DNA from: Candidatus Brevefilum sp.
GTDB taxonomy: Bacteria > Chloroflexota > Anaerolineae > Anaerolineales > Anaerolineaceae
Length of the DNA: 64,000 nucleotides
Direction: 5' to 3'
NCBI GenBank assembly: GCA_035376985.1
Contig: DAOSSA010000004.1
Span: 24 to 64,023 of the forward strand
A program made the position numbers and the translations under genes. This document shows, piece after piece, positions 1 to 52,570 of this stretch (the stretch's first letter is position 1; every line of letters starts with the position of its first letter). The notes below the pieces were generated by a model, which was given only the letters and a program-made list of their open reading frames with translations, ran no database searches and was not told where the DNA came from.

Positions 1-2
1 AC

Positions 3-999: not shown

Positions 1000-1084
1000 A
1001 TTCGGTAAATTGACAACGGTAAATTCTATAGATTATCATTGCGGTGTAATTTATTACACCGCTTTTTTATTAGATGAGGTTGGT

Positions 1085-1291: not shown

Positions 1292-1375
1292 ATTGGAAAT
1301 CAAAAAATTGCCGACTTTCTCCAGCCAAGGAATCTCATCGGCAATCTCAATAAACAGCCTACATAGGAGGCTCAT

Positions 1376-3739: not shown

Positions 3740-3840
3740 CAATGGGTAATCTCCCCAATGTTATTGGCCTTTTAGTGCTTTGTTTGTTGAGAAAAGAATA
3801 AAGCTAACAGTCAATATATTTTTAATTGAAAGGAGGAAAT

Positions 3841-28501: not shown

Positions 28502-29836
28502 TCAGACGAGTTTGCCGATCAGGTCGTAGGTGATTGCACCATGGATCTTCACTGCCACTATTTCGCCAATCGGGGCAATTCCTTCAACTAAAACCAGGCC
28601 GTCAATTTCGGGCGCATCCCGGTAGGATCGTCCAATTGAGATTTGGTTTTCATCGTCAATGCCTTCAATAATGACATCCAGCACCTTATCGATGAAGGAT
28701 TGATTGCGCGCCAAAGAGATCTCAGCTTGAATTTGCATGAGTTGTTCAACCCGTTTGGCTTTGGCATCTTCTGAGATCGGGTCGTCCAGGGGCTCGGCAG
28801 GAGCACCAGGTTCAAAGGAATAGGCAAACGTTCCCAGGTGATCAAAACGCTGGGCTTGGACGAAGTCCACCAACCTTTGGAAGGCAAGGTCATCCTCACC
28901 GGGAAAACCGACGATCATCGTTGTTCTCAGGGCAATATCTTCGATTTCAGCACGGATGCGGGCAAGTGCCTGCGAAACAGCTTCAATATCAGATGGGCGG
29001 CGCATCGCACGCAGGACGGCCGGGTCAGCGTGCTGGAGGGGGATATCCAGGTAGGAAAGGATTTGTGCTTCAGTTTTCATCAACTGGATTAGATTGTCTG
29101 TCACATAACCTGGAAAGGCATATAACAAACGGATCCAGGGAATGTGGGGGACTGCCCTGAGCAGAGCTTCTAACAACCGGGTTAACCCGTCCTGCATCCC
29201 CAAATCGTGCCCATAATCTGTGGTGTCCTGGGCGATGAGAATGATCTCCTTGATTCCACGATCCTGTAAAGCTTTTGCGTCCTTAATAATTTCATCGATT
29301 GGGCGGCTGATCAGATTGCCTTTGATCAATGGAATCAAGCAATAGGAACACGATCTACGGCAGCCATCAGCGATTTTTAGATAGGCGCTGCCACCCTGGA
29401 TAGCTACTCGGTGTGTTTCAACTGGACCTGAAGTTATTTGAGAGAGATGTAAATAAGGTTTCTTCCTGTCATGCCGATTGACTTGATCAACGACATCCAG
29501 GATGTCCATCCAGTGCCTGGTGCCCAGGATCCCGTCCAAGCCGGGCACAGAATCGAGTAATTCCTGACGGTGCAGTTCGGGCATGCACCCGGCAGCGATC
29601 AATTTCTGCCAGGGCTGTTTTTCAGTGGCCAGGCTCCTGAGTATTGAGATAGCTTCCCGGCGGGCTGCTGTCAAAAATCCGCAGGTGTTGACAATCAGGT
29701 ATTCCGATTTTTGAGGGATACTGGAAGCGACCAATCCACGCTGATTCAACAACCGGGACATCGATTCTGAATCCACCAAGTTTTTGGGACAGCCCAGGGA
29801 AACCAGGTGATAAGTCCCTTTAGCCTGTTTAGTCAT
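28502..29836 (-). CDS. rimO: ribosomal protein S12 methylthiotransferase
   Basis: SLGCPKNLVDSE, NTCGF, radical SAM CRRSCSYC, C-terminal TRAM domain (GRSYRDAPEIDG). Confidence 0.95.
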   Translation of the reverse strand: MTKQAKGTYHLVSLGCPKNLVDSESMSRLLNQRGLVASSIPQKSEYLIVNTCGFLTAARREAISILRSLATEKQPWQKLIAAGCMPELHRQELLDSVPGLDGILGTRHWMDILDVVDQVNRHDRKKPYLHLSQITSGPVETHRVAIQGGSAYLKIADGCRRSCSYCLIPLIKGNLISRPIDEIIKDAKALQDRGIKEIILIAQDTTDYGHDLGMQDGLTRLLEALLRAVPHIPWIRLLYAFPGYVTDNLIQLMKTEAQILSYLDIPLQHADPAVLRAMRRPSDIEAVSQALARIRAEIEDIALRTTMIVGFPGEDDLAFQRLVDFVQAQRFDHLGTFAYSFEPGAPAEPLDDPISEDAKAKRVEQLMQIQAEISLARNQSFIDKVLDVIIEGIDDENQISIGRSYRDAPEIDGLVLVEGIAPIGEIVAVKIHGAITYDLIGKLV

Positions 29837-35597: not shown

Positions 35598-36953
35598 ATG
35601 CTGATCACCAATGGGAAACTGATACCATGGGGTTCTGAATATCAGGTCATGCCCGAGGGCTGGGGTCTTCTGATCCGCGATGGTGTGATTCAGAAGATTG
35701 CACCTCAAAATGAACTGATTAAGGATTATCCCGAAGAAGAAATTTTAGATGCCGGGGGTCAATACGTGATGCCGGGAAATATCTGCGCCCACACCCATTT
35801 TTACGGCGCTTTTTCACGCGGTTTGGGCATTCCTGGGGAGCCCGCCAGCACCTTTACGGAGATTCTGGAAAAACTCTGGTGGAATCTCGATAAAGCTCTG
35901 GATGAAGATGGCGTCCGCTATTCAGCACTGGTGTGTCTGGTGGATGCGATTAAGCACGGTACCACAACGTTAATTGACCACCATGCCTCACCCACTGCGA
36001 TTGATGGCTCATTGGATATCATCGCTGAGACGATAAACCAGGCTGGTCTGCGGGCATCCCTGTGTTACGAGGTCACCGATCGGGATGGGGCTGAAAAATC
36101 CGAGCAAGGTTTGCAAGAAAACCTGCGCTTTGTTAAGCGAATCCAGAATAGGGACCCGCAGGATTCGCTGCTGCGGGCGCATTTTGGCCTACACGCCAGC
36201 CTGACCCTGTCGGATGAAACCCTGTCTCGCGCGGAAGAACTTTGCCCTGCGGGGATTGGATTCCACATCCATGCTGCTGAGGGAATGGCAGACCAGGTCT
36301 TTAGCCTTGAAACCTCGGGAAAGCGGGTTGTCCATCGCCTGGATCAATTTGGGATATTGCGGCCCGAATCAATTTTGGCGCATGGCGTGCATCTGGACCA
36401 GGGTGAAATTGAACGCCTGGCAGAAACGCAAACCTGGCTGACGCACCAACCCCGTTCGAATATGAACAATGCCGTTGGCGTGGCTCCGATTGAAGATATG
36501 CTGGACGCGGGCATGCGAGTTGGTATGGGAAATGATGGTTTTTCTAATACGATGTGGTTGGAATGGAAAGAGGCGTACCTGCTGCACAAACTGTACCATC
36601 GCGATCCACAGCGGATGGGCGGTTACACCGTAACCAGGATCGCTGTTGACAACAACGCTGCGCTGGTGACTGAGCTGTTTGACGGCTTGCTGGTAGGCTG
36701 TATATCTGAGGGTGCCGCGGCTGATTTAATCTTCGTTGATTATCACCCCTTTACACCATTGACAGGCGGAAACCTGCCCTGGCATATCCTGTTTGGTTTC
36801 CAGGAAAGCATGGTCACAGCCACCATCGTCGCCGGTAAACCCCTGATGTACCAGCGACAGTTGATGACTCTTGATGAGGACGCGATCGCGGCCAGGGCGT
36901 TAGAAATTGCATCAGAGACCTGGAAACGGTTCGAAGAGATTGCTACCCAATAA
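35598..36953 (+). CDS. ssnA: SsnA-like amidohydrolase
   Basis: PGNICAHTHFY, GTTTLIDHHAS, HFGLHASLTLSD, FHIHAAE, HQPRSNMNNAVG, GNDG. Confidence 0.88.
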   Translation: MLITNGKLIPWGSEYQVMPEGWGLLIRDGVIQKIAPQNELIKDYPEEEILDAGGQYVMPGNICAHTHFYGAFSRGLGIPGEPASTFTEILEKLWWNLDKALDEDGVRYSALVCLVDAIKHGTTTLIDHHASPTAIDGSLDIIAETINQAGLRASLCYEVTDRDGAEKSEQGLQENLRFVKRIQNRDPQDSLLRAHFGLHASLTLSDETLSRAEELCPAGIGFHIHAAEGMADQVFSLETSGKRVVHRLDQFGILRPESILAHGVHLDQGEIERLAETQTWLTHQPRSNMNNAVGVAPIEDMLDAGMRVGMGNDGFSNTMWLEWKEAYLLHKLYHRDPQRMGGYTVTRIAVDNNAALVTELFDGLLVGCISEGAAADLIFVDYHPFTPLTGGNLPWHILFGFQESMVTATIVAGKPLMYQRQLMTLDEDAIAARALEIASETWKRFEEIATQ

Positions 36954-36991
36954 GCCTTTACCGGTTGAAAACAGAAGATAAGGAATACAGC

Positions 36992-37678
36992 ATGGTTGAT
37001 GAGACAAAACAATTGTATACACTCGGCATCGTTGGCGGGACAGGGAAAGAAGGCAAAGGTTTAGCTTACCGCTGGTTAAAAGCTGGGCATAAAGTCATTA
37101 TCGGCTCACGCAACTTTGAAAAAGCTCAGAAAGCAGTCGTAGAGCTGACTGAATTCATGGGCTATACCCCAGAAGGACTGAGCGGTATGGATAACAGGGC
37201 TGCCGTAGAAGCCTGTGACATTGCAGTGATAACCGTACCCTATGCCGGGCACAAATCTACCCTGGAAGATTTAAAAGATGCCTTGCAGGGCAAAATTGTG
37301 ATGGACGTTGTTGTCCCGCTTGTACCGCCGAAAGTTTCTAAGGTGCAAATGCCTGAATCGGGTTCTGCAGCGCAGGAAGCCCAGGCAATCTTAGGAGACG
37401 CGTGCCAGGTTGTGGATGCTTTTCAAAATATTTCTCATGAAAGGCTGTTGGGAGAGGGCGATACGGATTGTGATGTTTTGGTGTGCGGAAAAAGTAAGGC
37501 CGCGCGCGAGGTCGTGATCGGGTTGGTGGCTGATACCGGATTGAAGGGGTGGGACGCCGGACCGATTGAAAATGCGGTTGTTGTGGAAGGATTAACCTCG
37601 GTATTGATCGGTCTTAACCAGCAATACAAGGTGCATGTTGCCGGCATTCGCATCACCGGAATTTCTGATCAAACATAA
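36992..37678 (+). CDS. npdG: NADPH-dependent F420 reductase (F420H2:NADP+ oxidoreductase)
   Basis: GIVGGTGKEGKGLA, IIGSR, TVPY, DVVVPL, AFQNIS, DVLVCG, DAGPIENA. Confidence 0.92.
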   Translation: MVDETKQLYTLGIVGGTGKEGKGLAYRWLKAGHKVIIGSRNFEKAQKAVVELTEFMGYTPEGLSGMDNRAAVEACDIAVITVPYAGHKSTLEDLKDALQGKIVMDVVVPLVPPKVSKVQMPESGSAAQEAQAILGDACQVVDAFQNISHERLLGEGDTDCDVLVCGKSKAAREVVIGLVADTGLKGWDAGPIENAVVVEGLTSVLIGLNQQYKVHVAGIRITGISDQT

Positions 37679-37679
37679 G

Positions 37680-38447
37680 ATGGGACTGAACCTGATCCCA
37701 TTAGAAGGCTTTCCCCTGGTCAAGCCCGGGGATGACCTGGCGAGTCTGGTTGTAGAAGTTTTGGCAAAGAACGGCTTTTCGCTGCAAGACGGTGACATCG
37801 TGGTACTTGCGCAGAAGATTGTTTCCAAGGCAGAGGGCCGCCTGGTCAACCTGACAACAGTCGATCCCTCAGAAGCTGCGCTGGATTATGCACACATCAC
37901 TGGAAAAGACCCGCGTTTGGTCGAGTTGATTCTGTCGGAATGCCGGGAGGTCGTACGTGTCCGCCAGGGATTGATGATTGTCGAGCATCGCCTGGGTTTC
38001 ATCAGCGCCAATGCGGGCATTGATCATTCGAATGTTTCCGGTCCCTGGGGTGAGCCCAAAGATTGGGTTCTATTATTGCCTGAAGACCCGGATGCTTCAG
38101 CAGCGCACCTTCGGGCGCAATTGCAGGCTCGCTATGCTTGCCGCCTGGGCGTCTTGATCATTGATTCGCACGGGCGCGCCTGGCGTAATGGAACCATCGG
38201 GATGACGATTGGATTATCCGGGCTGCCGGGCCTGATCGATTTGCGCGGACAAGAGGACTTGTTTGATTTCCGCTTGCGGGTTACGCAGGTGGCTGCCAGT
38301 GATGAATTAGCAGCAGGCGCATCGCTGATGATGGGGCAGGCTCGGGAGGGGACTCCGGTAGTGCTGGCGAGAGGATTCCCATACCCGCTGCGTGAGGCAT
38401 CGCTGTCTGAGTTGATCCGGAACAAGGAATTCGACCTGTTTAGATGA
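37680..38447 (+). CDS. cofE: coenzyme F420-0:L-glutamate ligase (single domain)
   Basis: AQKIVSKAEGR, ANAGIDHSN, LLPEDPDASA, DSHGRAWRNG, DELAAGA. Confidence 0.93.
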   Translation: MGLNLIPLEGFPLVKPGDDLASLVVEVLAKNGFSLQDGDIVVLAQKIVSKAEGRLVNLTTVDPSEAALDYAHITGKDPRLVELILSECREVVRVRQGLMIVEHRLGFISANAGIDHSNVSGPWGEPKDWVLLLPEDPDASAAHLRAQLQARYACRLGVLIIDSHGRAWRNGTIGMTIGLSGLPGLIDLRGQEDLFDFRLRVTQVAASDELAAGASLMMGQAREGTPVVLARGFPYPLREASLSELIRNKEFDLFR

Positions 38448-38454
38448 GGCTTTG

Positions 38455-39009
38455 ATGTACGCCATAATCAGCGAGTTAGATCAAGAATCTTCGGTCGTCG
38501 TCAAAGACCTGTGGGGCAGGTTGCGGGAGGCTTGCGGACTGATGGCAATTTATGAGCTCCCGACGCCGCACTTTACCTGGTTTGTTGCTGAAAACCTGGA
38601 TGTTCCTGCCATTGAGGACATTCTGGCTGAACTTTCCGCCAGCACCTGTCTGTTAACCAGCTATGTATTTGGCTTCGGTATTTTTTCTGGAGAAAGGCCG
38701 GTTTTTTATCTACCTTTGGTCAAATCGCAGGCGATGATAGATCTTCACAATGAAATTTGGCGCCGATCGATTGAGCATAGTGAGCAACCCAATCCATACC
38801 TTTCACCTTCTTTCTGGATGCCGCATATCACCCTGGCAATTAATGATATAACTCGGGAAAGCCTGGCATGTGCTCTTGAATCGGTTGCCTTTGACGCGGT
38901 GGAAATGGAAGTTTCTGGGAGTAACTTGATCGTTGTATCACAGAGCGATGCCTCATCAACGATGACTTATAAACGATTTTATTTTAAGAGTTACGGGAGC
39001 GTATTTTGA
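38455..39009 (+). CDS. 2H phosphoesterase (2'-5' RNA ligase/cyclic phosphodiesterase superfamily)
   Basis: Two intact HxT motifs: PHFTW and PHITLA. Confidence 0.8.
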
Positions 39010-39950
39010 AAGTTGTCGCATTGACCGGTGGGGTGGGCGGCGCAAAGCTGGTCAATGGACTGGCAGCGCTGCTATCACCGGAAGAGCTGAGTGTGATCGT
39101 CAATACTGGCGATGATTTTGACTGCTGGGGGTTGAGGGTCTGCCCTGACCTTGACACGGTGTGTTATACCCTGGCTGGTCTGGCCAACCCGAAGACGGGA
39201 TGGGGACAGAAAGATGAAACCTGGGAAATTCTTGAAAAGGTTAGAAACTTGGGCGGGTCGACCTGGTTTAAAATCGGCGATAATGATTTGATAACCCACC
39301 TGAGGCGAACAGAGCTGCTCTCGGAAGGGAAAGCGCTTTCATCCGTGACACAGAATTTGTGCTCAACCTGGGGCGTAAAACTCCAGGTTCTTCCAATGAG
39401 CGACGATCCTGTTCGGACCATTGTCCATACTGCAGAACACGGTGCGCTGGCATTTCAACGCTATTTTGTTCAGTTGGCCTGTCAACCGGTCGTGCGTGCA
39501 TTTGAATTTTGTGGGGCTGAGGTTGCGTCTCCCGCACCCGGCGCTCTTGCTTTGATTGATGAGGCTGATGTGGTCATCTTCACGCCCTCCAACCCCTTTG
39601 TCAGTATTGACCCGATCCTGGCAATTCCCGGGTATCGTCAAGCGATCAAAAAGAAGCCCGTCATCGCTATTTCGCCCCTGGTGGGCGGAAAAGCAATAAA
39701 AGGCCCTACTGCGAAAATGTACCACGAGCTGGGAATTGTGCCTTCAGCCTCAGCAGTTGCCGGGCACTATCAGGGTTTACTGTGGGGGTTTGTTTTTGAC
39801 ACGCAGGACCGAACTGAATTGGAAAAAATTGAGCGTTGGCGTATAATTCCATTACTTACAAATACCTTTATGAAAGATATTCAGGACCGCATTCGCTTGG
39901 CTGAAGAAGTGATAAAATTTTGCGAGTCGATCCTCACCAGGAGTTTTTAA
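39006..39950 (+). CDS. cofD: 2-phospho-L-lactate transferase
   Basis: [44 protein letters not shown]. Confidence 0.95.
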
Positions 39951-39954
39951 ATCC

Positions 39955-40569
39955 ATGAGTTTATGGACAATCGTTCCAGTTAAACCTTTACGACGCGGAA
40001 AATCGCGACTTTCGGAGATTCTCTCCGAAGATGAACGTTACCGACTTAATCATTACCTGTTATCCCATACCATTGACATATTATTACAGGTAGAAACAAT
40101 CTCAGAGATCCTGGTAGTCAGTCGAGATTCCGATGTGCTGACAATTTCTCGAGAAAAGGGTGTGCGCACGGTGACAGAGAATGGCACACCAGAATTGAAT
40201 AATGCATTGCGAAGAGCCTCTTTATTTTCAAAGCTGTTTGCAAATGAGGGTGTCCTCATTGTCCCGGCGGACTTACCCCTGATAACCTCTAAGGATGTTA
40301 GCGACTTTCTTGCACAGCGCAAAGAACCGCCGACCATGGTGATCAACCCTGATCGCCACCGGTTGGGTACAAATATGTTGTTCTTAAATCCGGCAGGTCT
40401 GATCAACTTTTCTTTCGGCACCGATTCTTTTGAATGCCATTGCAGATTGGCCAGGCAACAAGGTGCAGAGGTGATTGTTCATGAAAATCCACGCATCGCT
40501 TTAGACTTGGATGTTCCGGAGGATTATGAAATCCTCCAATCGAGCAATGTTTTACCAGTGCGACAGTAA
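39955..40569 (+). CDS. cofC: 2-phospho-L-lactate/PEP guanylyltransferase
   Basis: IVPVKPLRRGKSRLS, LNNAL, PADLP, GTN, SF..H, DLDVPED. Confidence 0.93.
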   Translation: MSLWTIVPVKPLRRGKSRLSEILSEDERYRLNHYLLSHTIDILLQVETISEILVVSRDSDVLTISREKGVRTVTENGTPELNNALRRASLFSKLFANEGVLIVPADLPLITSKDVSDFLAQRKEPPTMVINPDRHRLGTNMLFLNPAGLINFSFGTDSFECHCRLARQQGAEVIVHENPRIALDLDVPEDYEILQSSNVLPVRQ

Positions 40570-40600
40570 ATGGTTAATAAATTAGTGGAAAAGGAAAAAA

Positions 40601-41602
40601 ATGACAATAGAAAGAGTAGCCCTGTATTTACAAGATGCCCATGACCTGCGAGATGGATTGGATTTTGTAAAATATGCTGAAGAGCGAGGTTTTGAGGCGG
40701 TTTGGCAGGCTGAAAGCCGCCTGGTTCGAGATGCCATTGTGCCAATGGCTGCCTATGCTGCAGTTACCGATAAAATCAAGGTTGGGTCTGGCGTCATCAA
40801 CAACTGGACCCGTAATATCGGTTTGCTGGCATCGACATTTCTCACGCTGGACGACCTGGCGCCAAACCGGATTATTTGCGGCATTGGCGCCTGGTGGGAT
40901 CCACTGGCAAAGAATGTGGGCATCGTCCGTAAAAGCCCAATGACGGCGATGGAAGAGACCATCACCGTCTTGCGTCGCCTGTTGAACATGGAACGGGTGT
41001 CGTTTGACGGCGAATATGTACATGTCACCGGGATTGAACTGGATGTGGTGCATGGTCGTCGTGAACCCCGGAATGTCCCGATTATGATCGGGGCAACTGG
41101 TCCAAAGATGATGGAGTTGACTGGAAAAATTGCAGATGGCGCTGTTTTAAATTACTGTGTTCCGCCAGAATATAATGAACAGGCGATTGATGAGCTGAAG
41201 AAGGGCTTGAAAGCATCTGGACGGACTTTGGATGATCTGGATCGCCCACAACTGGTTGTGTGCTCTGTCGACGAGGATGGCGAGAAAGCCAAAGACACCA
41301 GCCGTGAACTGCTGACGCAATACCTGGCACAACAGCCACATATTGCGAAGGCTTCCGGTGTTTCGATGGATATTGTGCACGAGATCCAGTCGATTCTTGG
41401 CTGGCCTGCCACGCATGAGCAAATCCAGCAAGCCAAGCACCTGGTACCGGATGAGTTGATCCATCGCATTACAGCCAGCGGCACCCCTGATGAGGCACGC
41501 GTCAAGGTGCAGGAATATATTAATAACGGTGCAACCTGCCCGATCCTCTACCCTGTTGGCGGCAATGTGAAGGTTTTGATTGATACTTTTGCTACAAAAT
41601 GA
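40601..41602 (+). CDS. luciferase-like (LLM) oxidoreductase, Mer-like, probably F420-dependent
   Basis: [34 protein letters not shown]...G..ADG; immediately follows the cof genes. Confidence 0.85.
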
Positions 41603-42078
41603 AATTAACTGAGAAACAACCTGGTTCGAAAACTTGTTTTGTGTGCGGCAGGGAAAACCTGGCTGGACTCAAACTTGAGTTTTATGTGATTGAACCCGGG
41701 AAGGTTTGTTCGTATTTTAACTTGCCTGAGCATTATGAGGGCTATCCCGGGACCATCCACGGCGGTATCATCGCTGCCATACTGGATGAATGTGGCGGTC
41801 GGGCTCAAATGACCGAGCCAAACCGATTTATGGTTACCGCTCAATTATGTATCCGTTATCGCCGACCGGTTCCATCGCGAACAGACCTGGTCGTCTACGG
41901 AGAAGCAGGTGAACGCCGAGGACGGGTATCCTTTGCCCGCAGCGAAATCCAGAGTGTAGATGGAAAGATTCTGGCTGATGCTGAATTGGTGCTGATGGAC
42001 ATTCCTGAATCTCAGTTTGCGGATGTGGATCTGGAAGCAATGGGTTGGCGGGTTTATCTTGATGAGGAGGCTGGATGA
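41599..42078 (+). CDS. PaaI-family hot-dog thioesterase
   Basis: [37 protein letters not shown]. Confidence 0.88.
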
Positions 42079-42848
42079 TTGGTGAATATTTCAGACCAAA
42101 GACAGTAGAAGAGGCGTTGTTATTATTAACCGAAAAGGGAAAGATTCGGAAACCTCTGGGTGGCGGAACCAGCTTGAGCCGGCAGGTATCACGACATTTC
42201 GACGTGGTCGACTTGCAAAACGTTGGTTTGGATCGCATTGAGGAAAGCGGTCAAAACTTAGTGGCAGGGAGCACGCTTCGTTTTGATTTGCTTTTAGCAC
42301 ACCCCGGGGTTCACCCTGAGATCAAGCGAGCAATCCGCATTGATGCTTCAGAAAACAACCGAAACATGGCTACCCTGGGCGGATGGATGGTGAACAGCGA
42401 TGGTCGTTCGCTGACGACAACCGCATTGCTGGCAATGGATGCAAATTTAACCTGGGAGCCAGAGGCTGTTCAGATACGGCTTGGCGATTGGCTGCCCCTG
42501 CGCAGTCAGAATCAACCCGGCGTGTTGATGACAGAGGTAGCCTGGACCACGGGCGCAAGGCTTGTTTTTGAGTATGTGGCGCGCTCTCCGAAGGACCGCC
42601 CAACCATGATTGTGGCTATGGCTCAGTGGGGTTCAGGCAGGACACGTGTGGCCTTGGGTGGCTTTGGCGATGCGCCCATCATCGCTGTAGATGGCATAGG
42701 AGCCGATGGGGTGGATATCGCCAGTCGGTATGCCTGTTTAGAGGCTGGAGATCAATGGGCGTCTGCGGAGTACCGGCGTGAGGTCGCTGCAAAACTTGCC
42801 TTGCGTTGTGCGGCGCGTGTGGATGCCATCAAAGGAAGTGGTGCCTGA
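42075..42848 (+). CDS. molybdenum hydroxylase FAD-binding subunit, YgfM-like
   Basis: EYFRPKTVEEAL, LGGGT, RNMATLGG; short (257 aa). Confidence 0.75.
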   Translation: MIGEYFRPKTVEEALLLLTEKGKIRKPLGGGTSLSRQVSRHFDVVDLQNVGLDRIEESGQNLVAGSTLRFDLLLAHPGVHPEIKRAIRIDASENNRNMATLGGWMVNSDGRSLTTTALLAMDANLTWEPEAVQIRLGDWLPLRSQNQPGVLMTEVAWTTGARLVFEYVARSPKDRPTMIVAMAQWGSGRTRVALGGFGDAPIIAVDGIGADGVDIASRYACLEAGDQWASAEYRREVAAKLALRCAARVDAIKGSGA

Positions 42849-42849
42849 G

Positions 42850-45846
42850 ATGAAAATCATACTGAATATTAACAATCAAGACTATCCCCTTAATGTTCCT
42901 GTTGGCGAGCGTTTACTGGAAACCCTGCGAAGGCTTGGTTTTTTCAGTGTCAAGTACGGCGGATGTGAAAAAGGAGAATGCGGCGCATGTGCTGTGCTTT
43001 TTGACGGTCGCCCGGTAAATAGCTGCACAATGTTTACAGCCCAGGCTGAAGGTCACAAAATCCAGACCGTGGAAAGCCTGGGTGAACACCCGGAACAGGG
43101 TTGGAAACGGACGCAGGGTTTGCATATTATTCAGCAAGCCTTTGTCGATACGGGTGCGATCCAGTGCGGTTACTGTACGCCAGCCATGGTATTGGTGAGC
43201 AAAGCCCTGTTAAATAAAAACCCTTCGCCCTCGGAAGAGGAAATTCGTGATGCCCTTTCTGGCGTCCTGTGCCGCTGCACCGGTTATGTGAAGCCGGTAC
43301 AGGCCGTTATGCGAGCTGCGGCGACCATGAGGGGTGAAAAGGTTCCTCCCATTGGTGAGCCAATTGATATTGGTGATTTATTAGATTTTGATCGGGGTCT
43401 CCCGGAGGACGGTGCGCCGATGACCTCTGACGGCGGAACAATGACTGAAACGCTGGTCTTCCCGAAGATAAAGGTCGTTGATGCGCGTTCACCATTGAAA
43501 ACGGTGGGTCACGGTGAACCTAAGGTGGATGCGGTCAAACTTGTGCAGGGCAAACCAGCCTTTGCTGCAGATTTTGAAAGGCGGGACATGCTGGTAGCCA
43601 AGGTGCTGCGAAGTCCCCATGCCCACGCGAACATCAAGCACATTGATACCTCGGAAGCAGAGGCGCTTCCTGGTGTGGCAGCCATTCTTACCTGGAAGGA
43701 TATTCCCAGGGTTGTCTATTCTACGGCTGGACAATCGCATCCCATTCCGGGACCGTTAGACATGTTTTCACTGGACAAAAAGGTCCGCTTTGTAGGCGAC
43801 AAGGTGGCGTTTGTGGCTGCTGAAACAGCTGAGATCGCAGAAGCCGCGTTGAAACTGATCAAGGTGGAATATGAAGTCTTGCCTGCCATTATTGATCCCA
43901 CCAAAGCGATGGATGAAGGCGCTGTGGTCATTCATGATGAAGAAGAATACGTCAATTTTGATGAATCTGACCCCTCGCGCAACCTGGCTGCTGAGATCCG
44001 CGTGGATATCGGCGATGTTGAACAGGGTTTTGCCGAGGCAGAGCGCATCTTTGAAGCTGAATACGTTGTACCCAAGGTGCAGCAGGCGCATATCGAACCG
44101 CACGTGGTGGTGACATACTGGGATGAGGACGACCGCCTGGTGATTATCACCAGCACCCAGGTGCCCTTCCACGTCCGGCGCCAGATTGCTCCGGTGTTAG
44201 ATTTGCCGGTCAAGCGTATCCGGGTGATCAAACCCCGCATCGGTGGCGGTTTTGGCGGCAAGCAAGAAGTTCAGATCGAAGATGTTCCGGCACATCTGAC
44301 GATTGCGACGGGACGCCCTGTTATTTATGAAATGACCCGTGAGGAGGAATTTATTGGCTCCCGGGCACGCCATCCCATGCGCATTCGGTTGAAAACCGGG
44401 GTCAAGCAGGACGGCACGATAACTGCGAATGAAATGTACTGCCTGAGCGATACCGGCGCTTATGGGTGCCATGCTCTGACCGTGGCAGGAAATACCGGGC
44501 ATAAGGCGATGGCGCTGTATGTCGGTGACGGACCCTACCGCCAACAGCCCAATATCCGGTTTTATTCCGATGTTGTCTATACCAATACGCCGCCTTCAGG
44601 CGCCTTCCGTGGTTACGGTGTTCCACAAGGATTCTGGCCTGTTGAACGGCACATGGAGACAATTTCAAAAGCTCTAGGCATCGATCCGATTGAATTCAGG
44701 TTGATGAATGCCCTCAGACCAGGCGAGTTACACCCCTTCAGTACAGCCTGGAGCGAGGGACGAGAACCCAAGCCTGAAAAAGTGTACACGATTGGCCTGG
44801 AAGAGTGCGTCTATCAGGGCAGGATGGCCATTGATTGGGACCATAAGTTTGGTAACGCGGCATGGCACACCATCCCTGGCAGCGAGCATTTGCGCAAGGG
44901 AATTGGGGTTGCTATGGTGATGCAGGGGACTGCTATCCCCTACCTGGATATGGGCGGCGCCAGTATTAAAATGAATGATGACGGGTCATTTAACCTGCTG
45001 GTCGGCGCTACAGACCTGGGGACCGGTTCGGACACGGTATTGGGTCAGATGGCAGCCGAAACCCTGGGCGTTCGTTTGGACGATATCCTGGTGTATTCAT
45101 CGGACACGGATTTCACACCCTTTGATGTGGGTGCTTACGCATCCAGCACAACGTACATCTCCGGTACAGCAGTGGTCAAAGCAGCAGAGAAGGTCGCTGA
45201 GCAGATTCGCGAGCGGGCAGCCTTGATGTTTGCTGAAAATGGCGATGAGGTGGACCATAACGAGATACTGCTGGAAGACCGGAAGGCAATTGCACCTTCA
45301 GGCAATTCCTTCAGTATGGAAGAGATTGCCCTGCACGCGCTGCACGCATCCGATCAGAGGCAAATTATGGGAGTTGCTTCGCATGTGTCCCCGGTTGCTC
45401 CACCGCCTTTTGCAGCGCAATTTGCTGAGGTGACCGTTGATATTGAAACCGGTATGGTTACAGTGGATAAACTGGTTATGGCCGTTGATGGCGGTGTGAT
45501 CATCAACCCTGTCACAGCATCAGGTCAGGTTGAAGGCGGGATGGCCCAGGCCCTGGGTTACGCGGTGACCGAAGAAATGGTATACGATGATTTAGGACGG
45601 GCGAGGGAGCGTGACCTTGTGGACTATCACATTTTCCGCTCGGATGAAATGCCTGAACTGACGACTATTTTCGTGGAAACCTACGAACATTCACATCCTT
45701 ATGGCGCAAAAGCTGTTGCGGAAATCCCGCTGGATGGAGTTGCACCTGCTGTTGGTAATGCGATATTAGATGCGTGCGGAGTTTCACTGCACGAAATCCC
45801 TGCCTTGCCCGAGAAAATCTGGAAAGCTTTAACAACCTCGGAATAA
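42850..45846 (+). CDS. molybdopterin-dependent oxidoreductase with fused N-terminal 2x[2Fe-2S] domain, XdhD-like
   Basis: GCEKGECGAC, QCGYC, CRCTGY, IGGGFGGK, GAFRGYG, ASSTT, GQVEGG, AKAVAE. Confidence 0.9.
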   Translation: MKIILNINNQDYPLNVPVGERLLETLRRLGFFSVKYGGCEKGECGACAVLFDGRPVNSCTMFTAQAEGHKIQTVESLGEHPEQGWKRTQGLHIIQQAFVDTGAIQCGYCTPAMVLVSKALLNKNPSPSEEEIRDALSGVLCRCTGYVKPVQAVMRAAATMRGEKVPPIGEPIDIGDLLDFDRGLPEDGAPMTSDGGTMTETLVFPKIKVVDARSPLKTVGHGEPKVDAVKLVQGKPAFAADFERRDMLVAKVLRSPHAHANIKHIDTSEAEALPGVAAILTWKDIPRVVYSTAGQSHPIPGPLDMFSLDKKVRFVGDKVAFVAAETAEIAEAALKLIKVEYEVLPAIIDPTKAMDEGAVVIHDEEEYVNFDESDPSRNLAAEIRVDIGDVEQGFAEAERIFEAEYVVPKVQQAHIEPHVVVTYWDEDDRLVIITSTQVPFHVRRQIAPVLDLPVKRIRVIKPRIGGGFGGKQEVQIEDVPAHLTIATGRPVIYEMTREEEFIGSRARHPMRIRLKTGVKQDGTITANEMYCLSDTGAYGCHALTVAGNTGHKAMALYVGDGPYRQQPNIRFYSDVVYTNTPPSGAFRGYGVPQGFWPVERHMETISKALGIDPIEFRLMNALRPGELHPFSTAWSEGREPKPEKVYTIGLEECVYQGRMAIDWDHKFGNAAWHTIPGSEHLRKGIGVAMVMQGTAIPYLDMGGASIKMNDDGSFNLLVGATDLGTGSDTVLGQMAAETLGVRLDDILVYSSDTDFTPFDVGAYASSTTYISGTAVVKAAEKVAEQIRERAALMFAENGDEVDHNEILLEDRKAIAPSGNSFSMEEIALHALHASDQRQIMGVASHVSPVAPPPFAAQFAEVTVDIETGMVTVDKLVMAVDGGVIINPVTASGQVEGGMAQALGYAVTEEMVYDDLGRARERDLVDYHIFRSDEMPELTTIFVETYEHSHPYGAKAVAEIPLDGVAPAVGNAILDACGVSLHEIPALPEKIWKALTTSE

Positions 45847-45855
45847 AGATGAGCT

Positions 45856-45899
45856 AACCTTCCGCCGATTGTTTGAATGGACACATTTGGCGGAAGGTT
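45856..45899. other. 11-bp intercistronic hairpin
   Basis: AACCTTCCGCC/GGCGGAAGGTT with a 22-nt loop and no long U tract. Confidence 0.55.
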
Positions 45900-45955
45900 T
45901 AACCTCGAGGAATAATATTTGTTCCTGGAGTTTTGAGTTTGATTGAGGATTTGTG

Positions 45956-46744
45956 ATGAACATTGTCGAGCTGTTGAATGAAGCTTTAGCAGAGGGAAAG
46001 CCTGTTGTGATGTGCACGATTGTGAACACAAAAGGTTCTGTGCCGAGGCACGCAGGCACCAAAATGCTGGTTTACAGTGAAGGGCATTTTGAAGGCACGG
46101 TTGGCGGGGGTGAGGTGGAAAACCGGATTCTTGCTGAAGCAATGGCAGCATTTAAAGATGGAAAAACCCGTTTTTTAACCTACGATATGATCGATCCTGA
46201 ACGCGGTGATGCAGGCATTTGCGGCGGGATTGTGACCGTCTTCGTGGAGCCGTTTCTGACATTGCCAACTGTCGTTGTCGTTGGCGCCGGGCATGTCGGG
46301 CGGCCGATTGTGCACCTGGCAAAGTGGCTTGGGTTTCGTGTGGTCGTGAGCGATGATCGCGAGGAACTGTGCACCCCGGAGGAAACACCAGGCGCAGACC
46401 TGTACCTGCCAGCCCTGATAAGCCAGATACCAGAAAAATTACCCCTGGATTCACGCACATTCCTGGTGCTGGTTACCAGGGGCTCGGATATTGATGTGGA
46501 AGGTTTGCCAGCCCTTTTAGAAACGGATGTGCCGTATATCGGCTTGATTGGTTCTAAACGGCGTTGGGCGCATACACAAGAGAAACTGATTGAAAAAGGG
46601 GTCTCGAAGGAAGCCTTGGCAAGGGTGAAATCACCGATCGGGTTATTTATTCATGCAGAAACGCCCAATGAAATCGCCATCAGCATTATGGCTGAGATCA
46701 TCGATCATTACAACCAGATGAAAAAACATTTTCAAAGAGCATAA
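45956..46744 (+). CDS. xdhC: XdhC/CoxF-family molybdenum cofactor insertion protein
   Basis: GSVPRHAGTKM, GTVGGG.VE, CGG, GAGHV, YIGLIGS, PIG, ETPNEIA. Confidence 0.9.
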   Translation: MNIVELLNEALAEGKPVVMCTIVNTKGSVPRHAGTKMLVYSEGHFEGTVGGGEVENRILAEAMAAFKDGKTRFLTYDMIDPERGDAGICGGIVTVFVEPFLTLPTVVVVGAGHVGRPIVHLAKWLGFRVVVSDDREELCTPEETPGADLYLPALISQIPEKLPLDSRTFLVLVTRGSDIDVEGLPALLETDVPYIGLIGSKRRWAHTQEKLIEKGVSKEALARVKSPIGLFIHAETPNEIAISIMAEIIDHYNQMKKHFQRA

Positions 46745-46761
46745 ATTGGAGTTAACGGCGT

Positions 46762-48180
46762 ATGTGGAAAAAATACATTTTAGCAGATTCAATTGAGGCA
46801 GCGGTTGCGGCTTTGACCGAAGCGGAAGAAACCGCGCGGATTATCGCTGGCGGTACCGATCTGATTCTTGAGCTGGAGCGTGGTACTCGTCAGGGCATCA
46901 GCACTCTGATTGATATCACCCAAATACCGGGTTTGGATGAAATTTGGGAAGACAGCGACGGCTTGATCCACATCGGTCCATTGGTGACTCATAATCACGT
47001 GCTGGCCTCACCGTTGATCCGTGAGAAAGCCTTTGCTCTCCTGCAAGCCTGTTGGGAGGTTGGCTCACCTCAAATCCGCAATCGAGGGACGGTCGTTGGC
47101 AATTTAGTAACAGCATCCCCGGCGAATGATACCATCAGCCCTTTGATGGCCCTTAAGGCAAAGCTCAGGCTGGTGTCAACTCGGGGAGAACGCATCGTCT
47201 CCCTGGAGGATTTTTACACTGGTGTACGCAAAACTGTGATGAAAAACGATGAAATCATTACGGAAGTATTCTTCCCAGCGCCTGGAACTCACCAGGTATC
47301 CTATTTTATTAAAACAGCCCTGCGCAAAGCCCAGGCAATCTCAGTCATTAATATCAGCCTTCTGCTGTCGATACAGGGAGATGTGATCGATGATGCCAGG
47401 ATTACCCTGGGTGCAGCTGCGCCAACGATCATCCATGCTGAGGCAGCGGAAGCCTTTCTTTCCGGAAAGCAGTTAAGCGACACAGTGATTGAACAGGCGG
47501 CTGAATTGGTGGCTGAGGCTGCATCACCGATTTCGGATTTGCGCGGCTCCGCCGATTATCGGGCGTACATGATGGGCGTAATCGCACGACGAGCTTTGAC
47601 CGCCATTGCCAACGGTGTCGATAAAACCCAAATTCCGAGTGAACCGATTTTGCTGATGGGGTCGGGCTTGCATGTAAAAGCACCCCAATTGCCCTGGACG
47701 GGCGAGGAGATCCACACCTGGATCAACGGGAAGGAATATCGTTTTAGAACAGGATTTTCAAAGACATTATTAAATTTGATCCGTGATGAGGCGGGGTTAA
47801 CCGGCACGAAAGAAGGTTGCGCTGAAGGTGAGTGCGGCGCCTGTACGGTTTACTTGGATGGCAGGGCAGTGATGAGCTGCCTGGTACCGGCGCCCCGGGC
47901 GCATGGCGCAGAGATTGTAACGATCGAGGGCATGCGCGCTGGTGAAAAATTGCACCCGGTTCAGGAAGCTTTCATCGAACACGGCGCAGTTCAATGCGGT
48001 TTTTGTACTCCCGGGTTTGTGATGTCAGCGGTCAAGTTGCTTGAAGAGCGCGAAACCCCTTCACAGGCTGAGATCCGGCAGGCAATTACCGGGAACCTGT
48101 GCCGCTGTACAGGCTATTATAAGATCATTGAAGCGATTGAGAGCGCCAGCCAGCGGATGCATGCTGGTGACCAGGTATAA
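46762..48180 (+). CDS. xanthine dehydrogenase FAD-binding subunit fused to a C-terminal [2Fe-2S] subunit
   Basis: IAGGTD, SPQIRNRGT, then GTKEGCAEGECGAC, QCGFC, GNLCRCTGY. Confidence 0.9.
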   Translation: MWKKYILADSIEAAVAALTEAEETARIIAGGTDLILELERGTRQGISTLIDITQIPGLDEIWEDSDGLIHIGPLVTHNHVLASPLIREKAFALLQACWEVGSPQIRNRGTVVGNLVTASPANDTISPLMALKAKLRLVSTRGERIVSLEDFYTGVRKTVMKNDEIITEVFFPAPGTHQVSYFIKTALRKAQAISVINISLLLSIQGDVIDDARITLGAAAPTIIHAEAAEAFLSGKQLSDTVIEQAAELVAEAASPISDLRGSADYRAYMMGVIARRALTAIANGVDKTQIPSEPILLMGSGLHVKAPQLPWTGEEIHTWINGKEYRFRTGFSKTLLNLIRDEAGLTGTKEGCAEGECGACTVYLDGRAVMSCLVPAPRAHGAEIVTIEGMRAGEKLHPVQEAFIEHGAVQCGFCTPGFVMSAVKLLEERETPSQAEIRQAITGNLCRCTGYYKIIEAIESASQRMHAGDQV

Positions 48181-48198
48181 AGCAGAACAGGAGTTAGC

Positions 48199-50409
48199 AT
48201 GGCATATATTGGTAAATCTGTAACACGGATTGATGTCAGAGACAAAGTTACGGGAGAAGCACTTTACCCCGCTGACTTTTCGCTGCCAGACCAGGCATAT
48301 ATGAAAATTCTATTTGCAGGGAGACCTCACGCAGTGGTCAAAGCGATCGACACAACTGCGGCAGAAGCCATGCCCGGCGTTCTGGCTGTATTGACGGCAA
48401 AGGATGTGCCGGTGAACGAATACGGGCTAGGAACGAACGATCAGCCTGTTTTGTGTGGACCGGGGTCATCCAAACCCTTCGCGGATCGGGTACGGTTTGT
48501 GGGAGACCAGGTGGCGCTGGTTCTGGCTGACACTGAGCAGATTGCAGCTGAAGCTTGCAAGAAGATCGTCGTTGACTATGAAGATCTGCCGGTGTTTGAT
48601 TCGCCAGAGGCTGCCATGGTGGATGATGCCGTCTTGCTGCATCCGGATCATGGGTCAAATGTTATTCTTGAATATCAAATCTTGCATGGTGATGTGGAAT
48701 CCGCATTTGGCGATTGCGATGTAATTGTAGAATGCGAGTATCACACACCAATGCAGGAGCATGCATATCTGCAGCCTGAAGCCGGGGTCAGTTATTTCGA
48801 CGAGGAAGGACGGGTCACGGTTGTTGTGGCCGGTCAATGGACACATGAAGATCGAAACCAAATTGCCCATTCGCTGGACCTTCCCCTTGACCGGGTGCGG
48901 GTGATATACCCGGCGATTGGCGGCGCATTTGGCGGTCGTGAGGATATGTCGGTGCAGATTGTACTGGCGTTAGCTGCTAAATATTTACATGACCGGGGGA
49001 TCAACCGTCCGGTAAAAGTCGTCTGGAGCCGAGAAGAATCGATCATTGGTCATCACAAGCGCCACGCCTACAAACTGGTTGCTAAATGGGGTGCCACAAA
49101 AGATGGGAAGATCATCGCTGCCCAGGTGGATGTGACGGCTGATGGCGGCGCGTATGTGTACACATCGAACAAAGTGCTTGGCAACGCTACATTGATGAGC
49201 ATCGGCCCCTATGAGATTCCCAACGTGCAGGTGAATTCGAGGGCAGTGTATACGAACAACGTTCCAGGGGGCGCATTTCGCGGATTTGGCGGACCGCAAG
49301 GGGTGTTTGAGGCGGAAATGCAGGTCAATCGCCTGGCAGAAGCTTTGGGTATGGACCCGGTTGAGTTGAGAATGCGCAATTTGATTGAAGACGATTCGAT
49401 TTTGTGCACCAATACCAAGCCACCCAAGGGCGTGACGATTAAACCCGTGTTGGAAGTTTGTGCAACCAGGGCTGGCTGGGCTAACACGGACACAGGCTGG
49501 AACGCGCCGGCGAAAATGGGTTCCACAGATGCCCTGAAACGCGGCCGCGGCTTGGCGGTTGCTTTCAAGAATATTGGTTTTTCATTTGGTGCAAAGGAAA
49601 ATTGCCATGCAAAAATTGAATTGCATGGAAAAACAGAGATTGAGCGCGTTGTGTTATATCACGCTGGTGCAGAGGTGGGCCAGGGTGCGCACACAATTTT
49701 CAAGCAGTTCGCTGCTGAAGCTCTGAATGTTCCGCTGGAGAAAATCGAAACGGAGTATTCAGATACAGCTTTTACCGGAGATGCAGGCAGTGTTTCAGCA
49801 TCACGAATGACCTTTATGGCGGGTAACGCGATTAAGGGAGCGGCAGATTTAGCTCTGGAGAAATGGGCAGCAGAAGAACGGCCTGCAATCGGTGATTATG
49901 TCTATTTTGCACCTCCAACCTCACGTTATGCACCTGTTACCGGGGAGTGTTATCCAAATATTTCTTATGGTTATGTGACAGAAGTGGTTGAGCTGGAAGT
50001 GGATACAGAATCTGGCAATGTCCGGATATTGAAGATCTATTGTGCGGACGATGTCGGTAAGGCGATTAACCCGATGCAAGTTGTCGGTCAGATTGAAGGT
50101 GCACTGGTCCAGGCGGTGGGATATGCAGTCCTGGAAAACTTCATCCACAAGGGTGGATACGTCCAAACCAATTTGTTGTCGAATTATTTAATTCCCACGG
50201 TGTTGGATATCCCGGATGAAATTGAATCAATCGTCCTGGAATACGCTGAACCCAACGGCCCATATGGTGCACGGGGTATGGCTGAGATGCCTTTTCTGCC
50301 ATTAGCACCAGCGGTGATGCATGCGATGTATGATGCGACCGGTGTGTGGTTCCACGAATTTCCCCTCACGCCGGAACGGGTGCTGCGGGGTTTGGGAAAA
50401 ATAAAATGA
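48199..50409 (+). CDS. xanthine dehydrogenase/purine hydroxylase molybdopterin-binding subunit
   Basis: QEHAYLQPE, IGGAFGGR, GAFRGFG, SASRMT, GQIEGA, GARGMAE. Confidence 0.92.
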   Translation: MAYIGKSVTRIDVRDKVTGEALYPADFSLPDQAYMKILFAGRPHAVVKAIDTTAAEAMPGVLAVLTAKDVPVNEYGLGTNDQPVLCGPGSSKPFADRVRFVGDQVALVLADTEQIAAEACKKIVVDYEDLPVFDSPEAAMVDDAVLLHPDHGSNVILEYQILHGDVESAFGDCDVIVECEYHTPMQEHAYLQPEAGVSYFDEEGRVTVVVAGQWTHEDRNQIAHSLDLPLDRVRVIYPAIGGAFGGREDMSVQIVLALAAKYLHDRGINRPVKVVWSREESIIGHHKRHAYKLVAKWGATKDGKIIAAQVDVTADGGAYVYTSNKVLGNATLMSIGPYEIPNVQVNSRAVYTNNVPGGAFRGFGGPQGVFEAEMQVNRLAEALGMDPVELRMRNLIEDDSILCTNTKPPKGVTIKPVLEVCATRAGWANTDTGWNAPAKMGSTDALKRGRGLAVAFKNIGFSFGAKENCHAKIELHGKTEIERVVLYHAGAEVGQGAHTIFKQFAAEALNVPLEKIETEYSDTAFTGDAGSVSASRMTFMAGNAIKGAADLALEKWAAEERPAIGDYVYFAPPTSRYAPVTGECYPNISYGYVTEVVELEVDTESGNVRILKIYCADDVGKAINPMQVVGQIEGALVQAVGYAVLENFIHKGGYVQTNLLSNYLIPTVLDIPDEIESIVLEYAEPNGPYGARGMAEMPFLPLAPAVMHAMYDATGVWFHEFPLTPERVLRGLGKIK

Positions 50410-51227
50410 AACCGTTTGTGCTCATCCGGGGCGGCGGCGACCTGGCAAGCGGGGTTGCGATTCGATTGCATCGGGTGGGCATTCCTGTTTTAATTGTTGA
50501 AACCAACCAACCAACGGCCGTGCGGCGTTCAGTTGCCTTTGCACAGGCAGTTTATGATGGTGAAGCATTGATCGAAGGCACAGCCGGACGATTGATCGGA
50601 TATCCAGAAGAGATGCTGTCTTGCTGGAACGAGGGCACGGTGCCGGTCATGGTTGACCCCGAACTGGAATTGATTTCAGTTTTCAAACCATTGGTGATTG
50701 TTGATGGGCGGATGCGAAAAACCAGCCAGGTTCTTTCCCTGGATATGGCGCAACTGGTGGTTGGGTTGGGACCGGGATTTACAGCGGGTGAGAACTGCCA
50801 TGCAGCGATTGAAACTAATCGAGGACATTTTCTGGGACGGGTTTACTGGCAGGGCAGTCCGCAAGCAAATACCGGCATCCCAGGGGAGGTTGAGGGTTAT
50901 ACTCGGGAGCGGGTGTTGTATGCCCCGACTGATGGAATTGTTCAGACCCTGGTTGATTTTAGCGACCATGTGCAGCCAGGTGACCCGGTGATTACTATCG
51001 GAAATCAGACCATAAAGGCGTCTCTTGCGGGCCTTGTGCGTGGGCTGATCCACCCGGGTATTTGGGTTAAGCAAGGCACAAAGGTAGCCGATATTGATCC
51101 GCGAACTGAAGATTTTCGCTGCTGGACAGTTTCAGAAAAAGCCCTGGCGATAGGCGGTGGGGTTTTGGAGGCAATTTTGACCCAACCTGAAATTCGTGCT
51201 TCCCTGTGGAATGAACTGGACCAATGA
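50406..51227 (+). CDS. yqeB: selenium-dependent molybdenum hydroxylase system protein YqeB (EF2563 family)
   Basis: VLIRGGGDLASGVA, AVRRSVAF, LGPGF, ETNRGH.LG, GTKVADIDPR, SEKALAIGGGVLEA. Confidence 0.92.
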   Translation: MKPFVLIRGGGDLASGVAIRLHRVGIPVLIVETNQPTAVRRSVAFAQAVYDGEALIEGTAGRLIGYPEEMLSCWNEGTVPVMVDPELELISVFKPLVIVDGRMRKTSQVLSLDMAQLVVGLGPGFTAGENCHAAIETNRGHFLGRVYWQGSPQANTGIPGEVEGYTRERVLYAPTDGIVQTLVDFSDHVQPGDPVITIGNQTIKASLAGLVRGLIHPGIWVKQGTKVADIDPRTEDFRCWTVSEKALAIGGGVLEAILTQPEIRASLWNELDQ

Positions 51228-52570
51228 ACCTGAGGCTGGCGCTCGGATTAACTGGTGTTGAGACGATTGCCTTTACAGGCGCTGGCGGGAAGACCAGCGC
51301 CATGGCAACCCTGGCTATGGAACTGCCACCGCCTGTTGTGATGATCACTACCACGCACCTGGGAAAGTGGCAAGAAGGCATCGCCCAGCAGCATATCATT
51401 ATCACATCGCCTGATGCTTTGAAGAAAAGTGACTTGTTGGGCTTGAAGACGATCCTGGTCACCGGACCTCCCGGTAAAGATGAACGCTGGGGAAGCCTTA
51501 ACCCGGAATCGCTTGAGAAACTATCCCGGATATGCCGTGAAAACGAGGTGCCCTTGCTGATTGAAGCGGATGGCGCTCGTCAATGCCCGCTTAAAGCGCC
51601 TGCAGATTACGAACCGGTGATTCCATCCTGGGTTGACCGGGTGGTGGTTATGGCCGGGCTGGGCGGCCTAAGAAGACGATTGAGTGCGGATACGGTACAC
51701 AGGCCGGAGTTGTTTTCGCAAATAGCCGGTCTGGCGATGGGGGAGGAAATCAAAGTTGAGCATGTGGAACGAGTGTTGCGCTCAACTTCGGGTGGCTTAA
51801 AAGGGACACCGGTTGGGGCGCGCCGAATTTTGTTCTTGAACCAGGCAGAGGATTCGGTTCGGAAAGCCCAGGGGAACAGGCTGGCTAATGCACTTGAGGA
51901 TGTTTACCAGCGGGTGCTGATTGGTTCGCTGGCACAGCCAGAAGCGGACGGACCGGTGTTCAGTGCGCACAGCCAAACGGCTGGTATTATCCTCGCTGCT
52001 GGTGGAAGTGAGCGATTGGGAGTTCCCAAACAGTTTTTAGATTGGTGCGGAAAACCGTTTATCGTCCAGGTGGCGCAAACTGCGCTAACGGCTGGATTAT
52101 CCCCGATGGTCGTGGTTACCGGTGCCCGCCAGACTGAAATAGAGACAGGTTTGGCAAATCTACCGGTCAGGTGTGTGTATAACCCTGAATGGGCGTCGGG
52201 GCAAGCATCATCGCTGAAGGTTGGCTTGAAATCCCTGCCCGACCATTGTGATTGCGCCATGTTTTTGCTCAGCGATCAGCCACAAATTACATCGCACCTG
52301 GTCCGTCAGTTAATTGAGCGGCATCATGCGGTGCGTGCACCGATTACCGCTCCGATGATCCGCGAGCGTCGGGGAAACCCGGTGCTGTTTGCCAGGCAAA
52401 CTTTTGGCGCGTTACGGGAAGTCAGCGGCGATCAGGGCGGGCGAGCCATATTTAACGCTTTTAAAGTTGACTATCTCCCCTGGGTTGATGAGCGTGCCCA
52501 GCTGGATGTTGACCAGGACAGCGACCTGAATAACCTGATCGAGCAGTATTTTGGTGGGCAAGCAAATTAA
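51224..52570 (+). CDS. yqeC: YqeC fused to a MocA-like molybdenum cofactor cytidylyltransferase
   Basis: GAGGKT, LIEADGA...PLKAP (YqeC), then ILAAGGSERLG..K, GQASS, LSDQP, DVD (NTP_transf_3). Confidence 0.9.
   Translation: MNLRLALGLTGVETIAFTGAGGKTSAMATLAMELPPPVVMITTTHLGKWQEGIAQQHIIITSPDALKKSDLLGLKTILVTGPPGKDERWGSLNPESLEKLSRICRENEVPLLIEADGARQCPLKAPADYEPVIPSWVDRVVVMAGLGGLRRRLSADTVHRPELFSQIAGLAMGEEIKVEHVERVLRSTSGGLKGTPVGARRILFLNQAEDSVRKAQGNRLANALEDVYQRVLIGSLAQPEADGPVFSAHSQTAGIILAAGGSERLGVPKQFLDWCGKPFIVQVAQTALTAGLSPMVVVTGARQTEIETGLANLPVRCVYNPEWASGQASSLKVGLKSLPDHCDCAMFLLSDQPQITSHLVRQLIERHHAVRAPITAPMIRERRGNPVLFARQTFGALREVSGDQGGRAIFNAFKVDYLPWVDERAQLDVDQDSDLNNLIEQYFGGQAN

Follow-up and report, generated by a model that had tools for sequence, protein, structure and literature searches.

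Coenzyme F420 is usually regarded as a cofactor made by its own users. The canonical pathway opens with FO synthase (CofG and CofH, or FbiC), which makes the deazaflavin core FO, and closes with CofC, CofD and CofE. In all producers studied, FO comes from two radical S-adenosylmethionine (radical-SAM) domains, which join tyrosine to 5-amino-6-ribitylaminouracil, a compound formed on the way to riboflavin; the review describing this chemistry makes no mention of salvage, scavenging or uptake (PMC8498797). FO is however a close analogue of riboflavin, thought to share its uptake routes, and cells do take it up, probably by way of riboflavin transport (PMC8859854). Producers also secrete FO, and synthetic FO complements a strain that lacks it (PMC11104420). 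What, then, should be made of a bacterial lineage that keeps the late steps of F420 synthesis only? Such is the lineage of Candidatus Brevefilum (Chloroflexota; Anaerolineae; Anaerolineaceae), examined here from a window of 64,000 nucleotides (the whole stretch of DNA analysed: assembly GCA_035376985.1, contig DAOSSA010000004.1, positions 24 to 64,023), which carries cofC, cofD and cofE in an F420 cassette. The original prediction, made from the letters of this stretch, held that no cofG, cofH or fbiC accompanies them in the cassette or the window, that CofE lacks the FbiB-type nitroreductase domain, and that the organism may scavenge FO or F420 fragments from methanogens. Following up these proposals across the genome, the family and the phylum, we consider it probable that the organism depends on obligate FO salvage, feeding a single Mer-like F420 enzyme within an operon of the SsnA/XdhD type.

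The F420 cassette

The cassette consists of six tightly spaced genes on the + strand (36965-41602), in the order npdG (Fno), cofE, a 2H phosphoesterase gene, cofD, cofC and a gene for an oxidoreductase of the luciferase-like monooxygenase (LLM) family:

36965..37678, +, npdG/Fno, NADPH-dependent F420 reductase, which recharges F420H2 (TIGR01915, 201 bits against a cut-off of 150; PF03807)
37635..38447, +, cofE, F420-0:L-glutamate ligase (TIGR01916, 263 bits against a cut-off of 181; PF01996 only)
38452..39009, +, 2H-phosphoesterase-like open reading frame (ORF) between cofE and cofD (PF13563, 34 bits)
39006..39950, +, cofD, 2-phospho-L-lactate (or enolpyruvyl) transferase, which links the side chain to FO (TIGR01819, 321 bits against a cut-off of 257)
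39955..40569, +, cofC, guanylyltransferase activating 2-phospho-L-lactate (2-PL) or phosphoenolpyruvate (PEP) (TIGR03552, 155 bits against a cut-off of 105)
40601..41602, +, Mer-like LLM oxidoreductase, predicted user of F420H2 (PF00296, 212 bits)

All four named F420 genes (npdG, cofE, cofD and cofC) exceed the curated NCBIfam equivalog cut-offs, and the three cof genes are thus present as originally described; the start given for the cassette at that time, 36992, falls on codon 10 within the npdG ORF (36965-37678). The closest solved structure to the Brevefilum Fno is that of Thermobifida fusca (5N2I, 152 bits). CofD matches the Methanosarcina mazei enzyme (3C3D) with an E value of 1.7e-62 and retains the metal-binding aspartate motifs GDD and PDLD, which line up with Asp45 and Asp57 of FbiA. 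CofE has 270 aa and a single F420_ligase domain, and a Pfam domain scan found no FbiB-type nitroreductase domain in it, just as had been proposed.

The slot between cofE and cofD varies. A 2H-phosphoesterase-like gene fills it in seven of 15 family loci, and it is empty in the remaining ones. In a sister family and in genome G161 it holds a stand-alone nitroreductase (L059:10891-11688; L075:10905-11705; L064:10906-11607), likely a dehydro-F420 reductase.

Which side chain would be attached? The original prediction had left CofC with three possible substrates: 2-PL, PEP or 3-phosphoglycerate (3-PG). The Brevefilum protein aligns best with a 3-PG enzyme (7P97); a serine or threonine at the place of its Ser162 is diagnostic of 3-PG use (PMC8764529). 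At the position of Ser162 (FSGPSF in 7P97), the Brevefilum CofC carries a glycine (FGTDSF), which points to an enzyme of the 2-PL/PEP type and makes a 3PG-F420 route unlikely; the choice is thereby narrowed, 2-PL and PEP not being separated by this residue. The FbiB-type nitroreductase model (TIGR03553) reaches at most 28 bits in the genome, against a cut-off of 250, and four generic nitroreductases are encoded elsewhere, unlinked to the cassette. A PEP route in which one of these would perform the reduction is conceivable, with 2-PL as the alternative.

The search for an FO synthase

The genome spans 2.35 Mb on 35 scaffolds, interrupted by some 33 internal gaps, and is 98.15% complete and 0.26% contaminated. 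Neither CofG (TIGR03550) nor CofH (TIGR03551) finds a match anywhere in it at E<=1e-3, while the controls respond. A tblastn search of the genome, remnants included, used the Anaerolineaceae CofG/CofH pair of G049, the only family genome having both (their identity confirmed by NCBIfam), and gave at best E=0.005 over 63 residues. Within the window itself, only one radical-SAM gene is present, and it is not an FO synthase:

28502..29836, -, RimO (TIGR01125, 443 bits, above cut-off)

The genome as a whole encodes 19 proteins matching the Pfam Radical_SAM domain, and all of them sort to other families or stay generic. NCBIfam names 14 of the 19, among them MoaA, MiaB, MtaB, RimO, AmmeMemoRadiSam, HemW, RlmN, a B12-binding protein and LipA, as well as lysine aminomutase, Elp3, a DNA-repair type and a glycyl-radical activase. 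SPASM-type maturases account for four, and two (L014 and L015) stay generic, with no similarity to CofG or CofH. An FO synthase hidden among the radical-SAM proteins was therefore rejected, none of the 19 having sorted to it. The genes cofGH or fbiC, whose presence elsewhere in the genome the original prediction had named as its counter-evidence, were thus found neither with hidden Markov models, nor by tblastn, nor by sorting the radical-SAM proteins.

The same holds for the relatives. In Ca. Brevefilum fermentans, whose genome is closed (G045; 2,574,431 bp), CofD is present and CofH was not found; 150 of the 151 family genomes are likewise without CofH, the exception being G049. In G049 (L055:8262-10702) the GC content is higher, at 0.58-0.61, and of the cassette only cofD and cofC stand together, without an ssnA/LLM/xdh operon; with this different layout, G049 tells us little about the Brevefilum genome.

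Riboflavin pathway and flavin import

The other substrate of FO synthesis comes from the riboflavin pathway. RibD (TIGR00326), RibH (lumazine synthase, PF00885) and GTP cyclohydrolase II (RibA, PF00925) were not found in the genome; RibA was not found in three closed family genomes either, and not one of the 151 family genomes has a RibD above cut-off. Without RibA, RibD and RibH the cell has no way to make the pyrimidine precursor of FO, so that even an unrecognised FO synthase of known chemistry would lack its substrate.

The genome does have RibF, and it has two apparent means of flavin import. A flavin mononucleotide (FMN) riboswitch (81.5 bits; C26:473-623) is followed by genes for an ATP-binding cassette (ABC) permease, an NMT1/SsuA-type binding protein and an ATPase (importer genes C26:678-3261). 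This riboswitch-led system (G000 C26:473-3261, L081) gives a genome without a riboflavin pathway a flavin importer of RibXY type. The second is an energy-coupling factor (ECF) riboflavin S-component, RibU (C23:14499-14948; NF010182, 194 bits against a cut-off of 99). A missing riboflavin pathway together with importers makes the organism a flavin auxotroph. Judged by its genes, which include neither an FO synthase nor a riboflavin pathway, the Brevefilum cell is auxotrophic for flavin and deazaflavin alike.

RibU (L041) is patchy, occurring in 33 of the 151 family genomes, yet it is 74-93% identical across most genera, above neighbouring core genes, which suggests that it spread laterally.

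Transporters linked to F420 cassettes occur in other families as single cases only. In G161 (L064:12719-13651), an EamA/DMT gene lies between cofE and cofD, and in G221 (L075:4145-7399) a TetR regulator and an NMT1-type ABC importer come after the LLM gene; both are candidate FO importers. Their homologues in Brevefilum are weak or absent. The families TIGR03868, TIGR03869 and TIGR03873 are predicted "F420-0 ABC transporters" of actinobacteria; of the Brevefilum import genes compared with them, from three ABC systems and two ECF S-components, none matches.

Selection on the cassette and evolution of CofD

Is the cassette still in use? Compared with B. fermentans, the ratio of non-synonymous to synonymous substitution rates (dN/dS) is 0.07 for npdG, 0.10 for cofE, 0.19 for cofD, 0.14 for cofC and 0.06 for the LLM gene, next to 0.10 for a housekeeping mutase in the same comparison (a dN of 2.99 for cofE against L052 was set aside as an alignment or coordinate artefact). 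Such values indicate that the cof genes are under purifying selection and functional.

A tree of 70 CofD sequences, 26 of them from CofH-positive and 44 from CofH-negative genomes, intermixes the two groups, with 13 state changes of which at least seven are forced by supported branches. Both groups show identity of 92% or more in 45 alignment columns, and nowhere in the alignment does a column tell them apart. The intermixed tree and the lack of a group-specific column argue against a new CofD substrate, and the pattern fits repeated loss of FO synthesis.

Distribution of CofD without CofH

CofD without CofH extends well beyond the genus. The samples of the class and the phylum were drawn from genomes at least 90% complete, and the counts describe these samples; since related genomes are not independent, they do not amount to a statistical test.

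Family: 151 genomes; CofD above cut-off in 105; true CofH in 1; CofH together with CofD in 1
Class: 251 genomes; CofD above cut-off in 101; true CofH in 13; CofH together with CofD in 12
Phylum: 301 genomes; CofD above cut-off in 193; true CofH in 33; CofH together with CofD in 33

About 160 of the 193 CofD-positive genomes in the phylum sample are thus without CofH. The phylum tallies include four unpublished genomes (G642, G546, G544 and G423), which no other claim uses. Weaker matches to the CofH model in the class sample are MqnC/MqnE-like. There CofH goes along with RibD, which occurs in 23 genomes of that sample, including nine of the 13 that are CofH-positive. In three Anaerolineae with an FO synthase, only 1-2 kb or less separate cofH from ribD (G326 C105:10149-13572; G304 C227:98-3499; G363 C146:13553-17262), so that one deletion could remove both. 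Five closed or near-closed CofD-positive genomes of other families contain no CofG match at E<=1e-5, though two of the five (G595 and G476) have RibD; the closed ones without CofG include L107 (G595; 5,258,541 bp) and L109 (G655; 5,801,598 bp).

The LLM enzyme and its operon

What would the cofactor be for? The Mer-like LLM gene is the sole match to its family (PF00296) in the whole genome, in which FrhB was not found. Its top 17 NCBIfam matches are all F420 LLM families, although the protein stays below every curated equivalog cut-off. Its best relatives in NCBIfam and the PDB are F420-dependent throughout, Mer leading and Fgd and Adf following; in the PDB, Mer scores 153 bits, versus no more than 37 bits for FMN-dependent enzymes. 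Over the 15 family loci, the LLM protein is 79-98% identical across genera, versus 44-90% for CofD. The cassette is embedded in a longer operon on the same strand:

35598..36953, +, ssnA-type aminohydrolase, first gene of the conserved operon (NF005540, 490 bits)
41599..52570, +, 3' part of the operon, assigned with Pfam and NCBIfam: hotdog thioesterase, YgfM-like FAD subunit, XdhD-like Mo/2Fe-2S subunit, XdhC, a second hydroxylase pair, a 293-aa ORF without assignment, and YqeC-MocA

The order ssnA-npdG-cofE-(2H)-cofD-cofC-LLM-(hotdog)-xdh is conserved in 14 of the 15 family loci, which represent many genera. F420 in Brevefilum appears to have a single user, the LLM enzyme, in a single operon.

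Two other features of the window lie apart from this operon. Positions 1-5010 have a low GC content (0.38 versus about 0.50) and encode two ORFs without a family match, a primase-like protein with a CHC2 zinc finger and a phage-type integrase; the stretch is likely one end of a mobile element that has integrated. On the - strand, positions 14218-15942 encode a protein of 574 aa with a full-length match to DUF6909 (757 bits).

A proposed route from external FO to F420

A salvage route can be drawn up from these parts. FO, the deazaflavin core, would enter the cell from outside, the candidates for its import being the FMN-riboswitch-led ABC importer of RibXY type, the ECF component RibU, and diffusion. 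CofC would then activate 2-phospholactate or PEP with GTP, CofD would move the activated group onto the 5'-OH of FO, and CofE would attach the glutamates. Fno would load hydride from NADPH onto the finished cofactor, and the single Mer-like LLM enzyme would spend the resulting F420H2 in an SsnA/XdhD-type operon for the catabolism of N-heterocycles (purine-like). We infer the import of FO, the route it takes and the reduction target of the LLM enzyme from this arrangement. The imported unit is likely FO and not finished F420, as CofC and CofD would be pointless if the complete cofactor were imported. Methanogens may be the main donors, to judge from a digester origin suggested by the names of near-identical proteins and from the papers on FO exchange. 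The salvage first proposed for this locus is thus strengthened by a missing FO synthase, a missing riboflavin pathway and the presence of flavin importers, and its methanogen source and uptake step stay as conditional as they were.

Alternative explanations

Several points weigh against FO salvage in Brevefilum. The F420 cassette of this genome neither contains nor adjoins a transporter gene, and across the family RibU shows no correlation with CofD, its 33 occurrences among 151 genomes falling in both CofD-positive and CofD-negative ones. The F420 content of Brevefilum is itself a prediction from genes, and the digester environment is suggested only by the names on near-identical proteins. 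The assembly is a draft whose scaffolds contain about 33 gaps, an objection that the closed sister genome G045 answers. Finally, FO synthase was not found in G595 and G476, two CofD-positive Chloroflexota that do have RibD, and the phylum could accordingly harbour an unrecognised enzyme that forms FO. Such an enzyme, non-homologous to CofG/CofH, or some other deazaflavin route, would mean that there is no auxotrophy at all. The 160 CofH-free genomes among the 193 CofD-positive Chloroflexota, with the closed, RibD-bearing G595 and G476 among them, and the unclassified radical-SAM proteins L014 and L015 speak in its favour. In Brevefilum and its closed relatives, however, RibA, RibD and RibH are missing and the known precursor is unavailable; L014 and L015 are unlike CofG/CofH, and the cassette holds no conserved gene that could be a candidate. 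We therefore think an FO synthase of this kind unlikely.

CofC, CofD and CofE might also decorate another head group, such as imported riboflavin or a flavin analogue, to give a flavin-headed cofactor resembling F420. Two riboflavin import systems in a cell without FO synthesis would suit this idea, as would the ability of LLM enzymes as a class to use flavins. Yet CofD shows no group-specific substitutions and is intermixed with the CofD of FO-making genomes, and the closest characterised relatives of Fno and of the LLM enzyme are all deazaflavin enzymes, which makes a flavin head group very unlikely. Taken more broadly, the possibility that no FO is scavenged, whether because an unrecognised deazaflavin route of a non-radical-SAM kind exists or because a new F420-like cofactor is built on an imported flavin head group, seems to us quite unlikely on the genes at hand. 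Import of finished F420 or F420-0 in place of FO has in its favour the predicted actinobacterial "F420-0 ABC transporter" families (TIGR03868, TIGR03869 and TIGR03873). It would however render CofC and CofD unnecessary, while both are under purifying selection, and no tested ABC system matches those three families; the dN/dS values, and the more than 100 genomes in which the ORFs are intact, rule out a decaying relic. Both versions we hold to be highly improbable. As to an artefact, in which the genes for FO synthase and the riboflavin pathway would have escaped assembly or binning, a draft of 35 scaffolds with internal N gaps invites the suspicion. But the genome is 98.15% complete, a closed genome of the same genus and two other closed family genomes are without the same genes, and CofH is missing in 150 of 151 family genomes, so that we give an artefact hardly any credence.

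Significance and comparison with known systems

If FO is indeed scavenged, the deazaflavin would be a shared vitamin, repeatedly lost like other leaky public goods. The late-steps-only state is that of an abundant lineage of anaerobic-digester bacteria and of most of the CofD-bearing Chloroflexota sampled. Under FO scavenging, the F420-dependent catabolic operon of these fermenters would rely on FO producers such as methanogens, and digester surveys based on F420 fluorescence or F420 genes would not reflect methanogens alone.

How does the locus compare with what has been described? Our literature searches brought up no paper on a natural conversion of salvaged FO to F420. FO is known to leave its producers and to be used elsewhere, both in its exchange from Mycetohabitans to Rhizopus (PMC11104420) and in the feeding of engineered yeast and E. 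coli (PMC8859854). The former is a matter of signalling and the latter of engineering, however, and neither is a natural bacterium converting scavenged FO to F420. The idea that late F420 genes go with uptake exists already, as the database annotation of an actinobacterial transporter cassette. That predicted F420-0 ABC transporter cassette follows the same logic, late F420 genes without FO synthase implying uptake, but it has a dedicated transporter beside its cof genes, whereas none is linked to them in Brevefilum.

Against canonical F420 biosynthesis, which includes a Chloroflexota/Thermomicrobia form with a stand-alone CofE, the Brevefilum CofC, CofD and CofE are orthologous to their counterparts, and CofE is single-domain like that of archaea and Thermomicrobia; the differences are that Brevefilum does without an FO synthase, without a riboflavin pathway to supply one and without a cassette nitroreductase, which a sister family does have. 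The closest parallel on the import side is the riboflavin salvage of auxotrophs, which relies on an ECF RibU or a RibXY-type ABC importer together with RibF and an FMN riboswitch. Brevefilum has this same equipment, and the difference would come after uptake: with FO transport as predicted here, the imported core would be extended by CofC, CofD and CofE, not by RibF.

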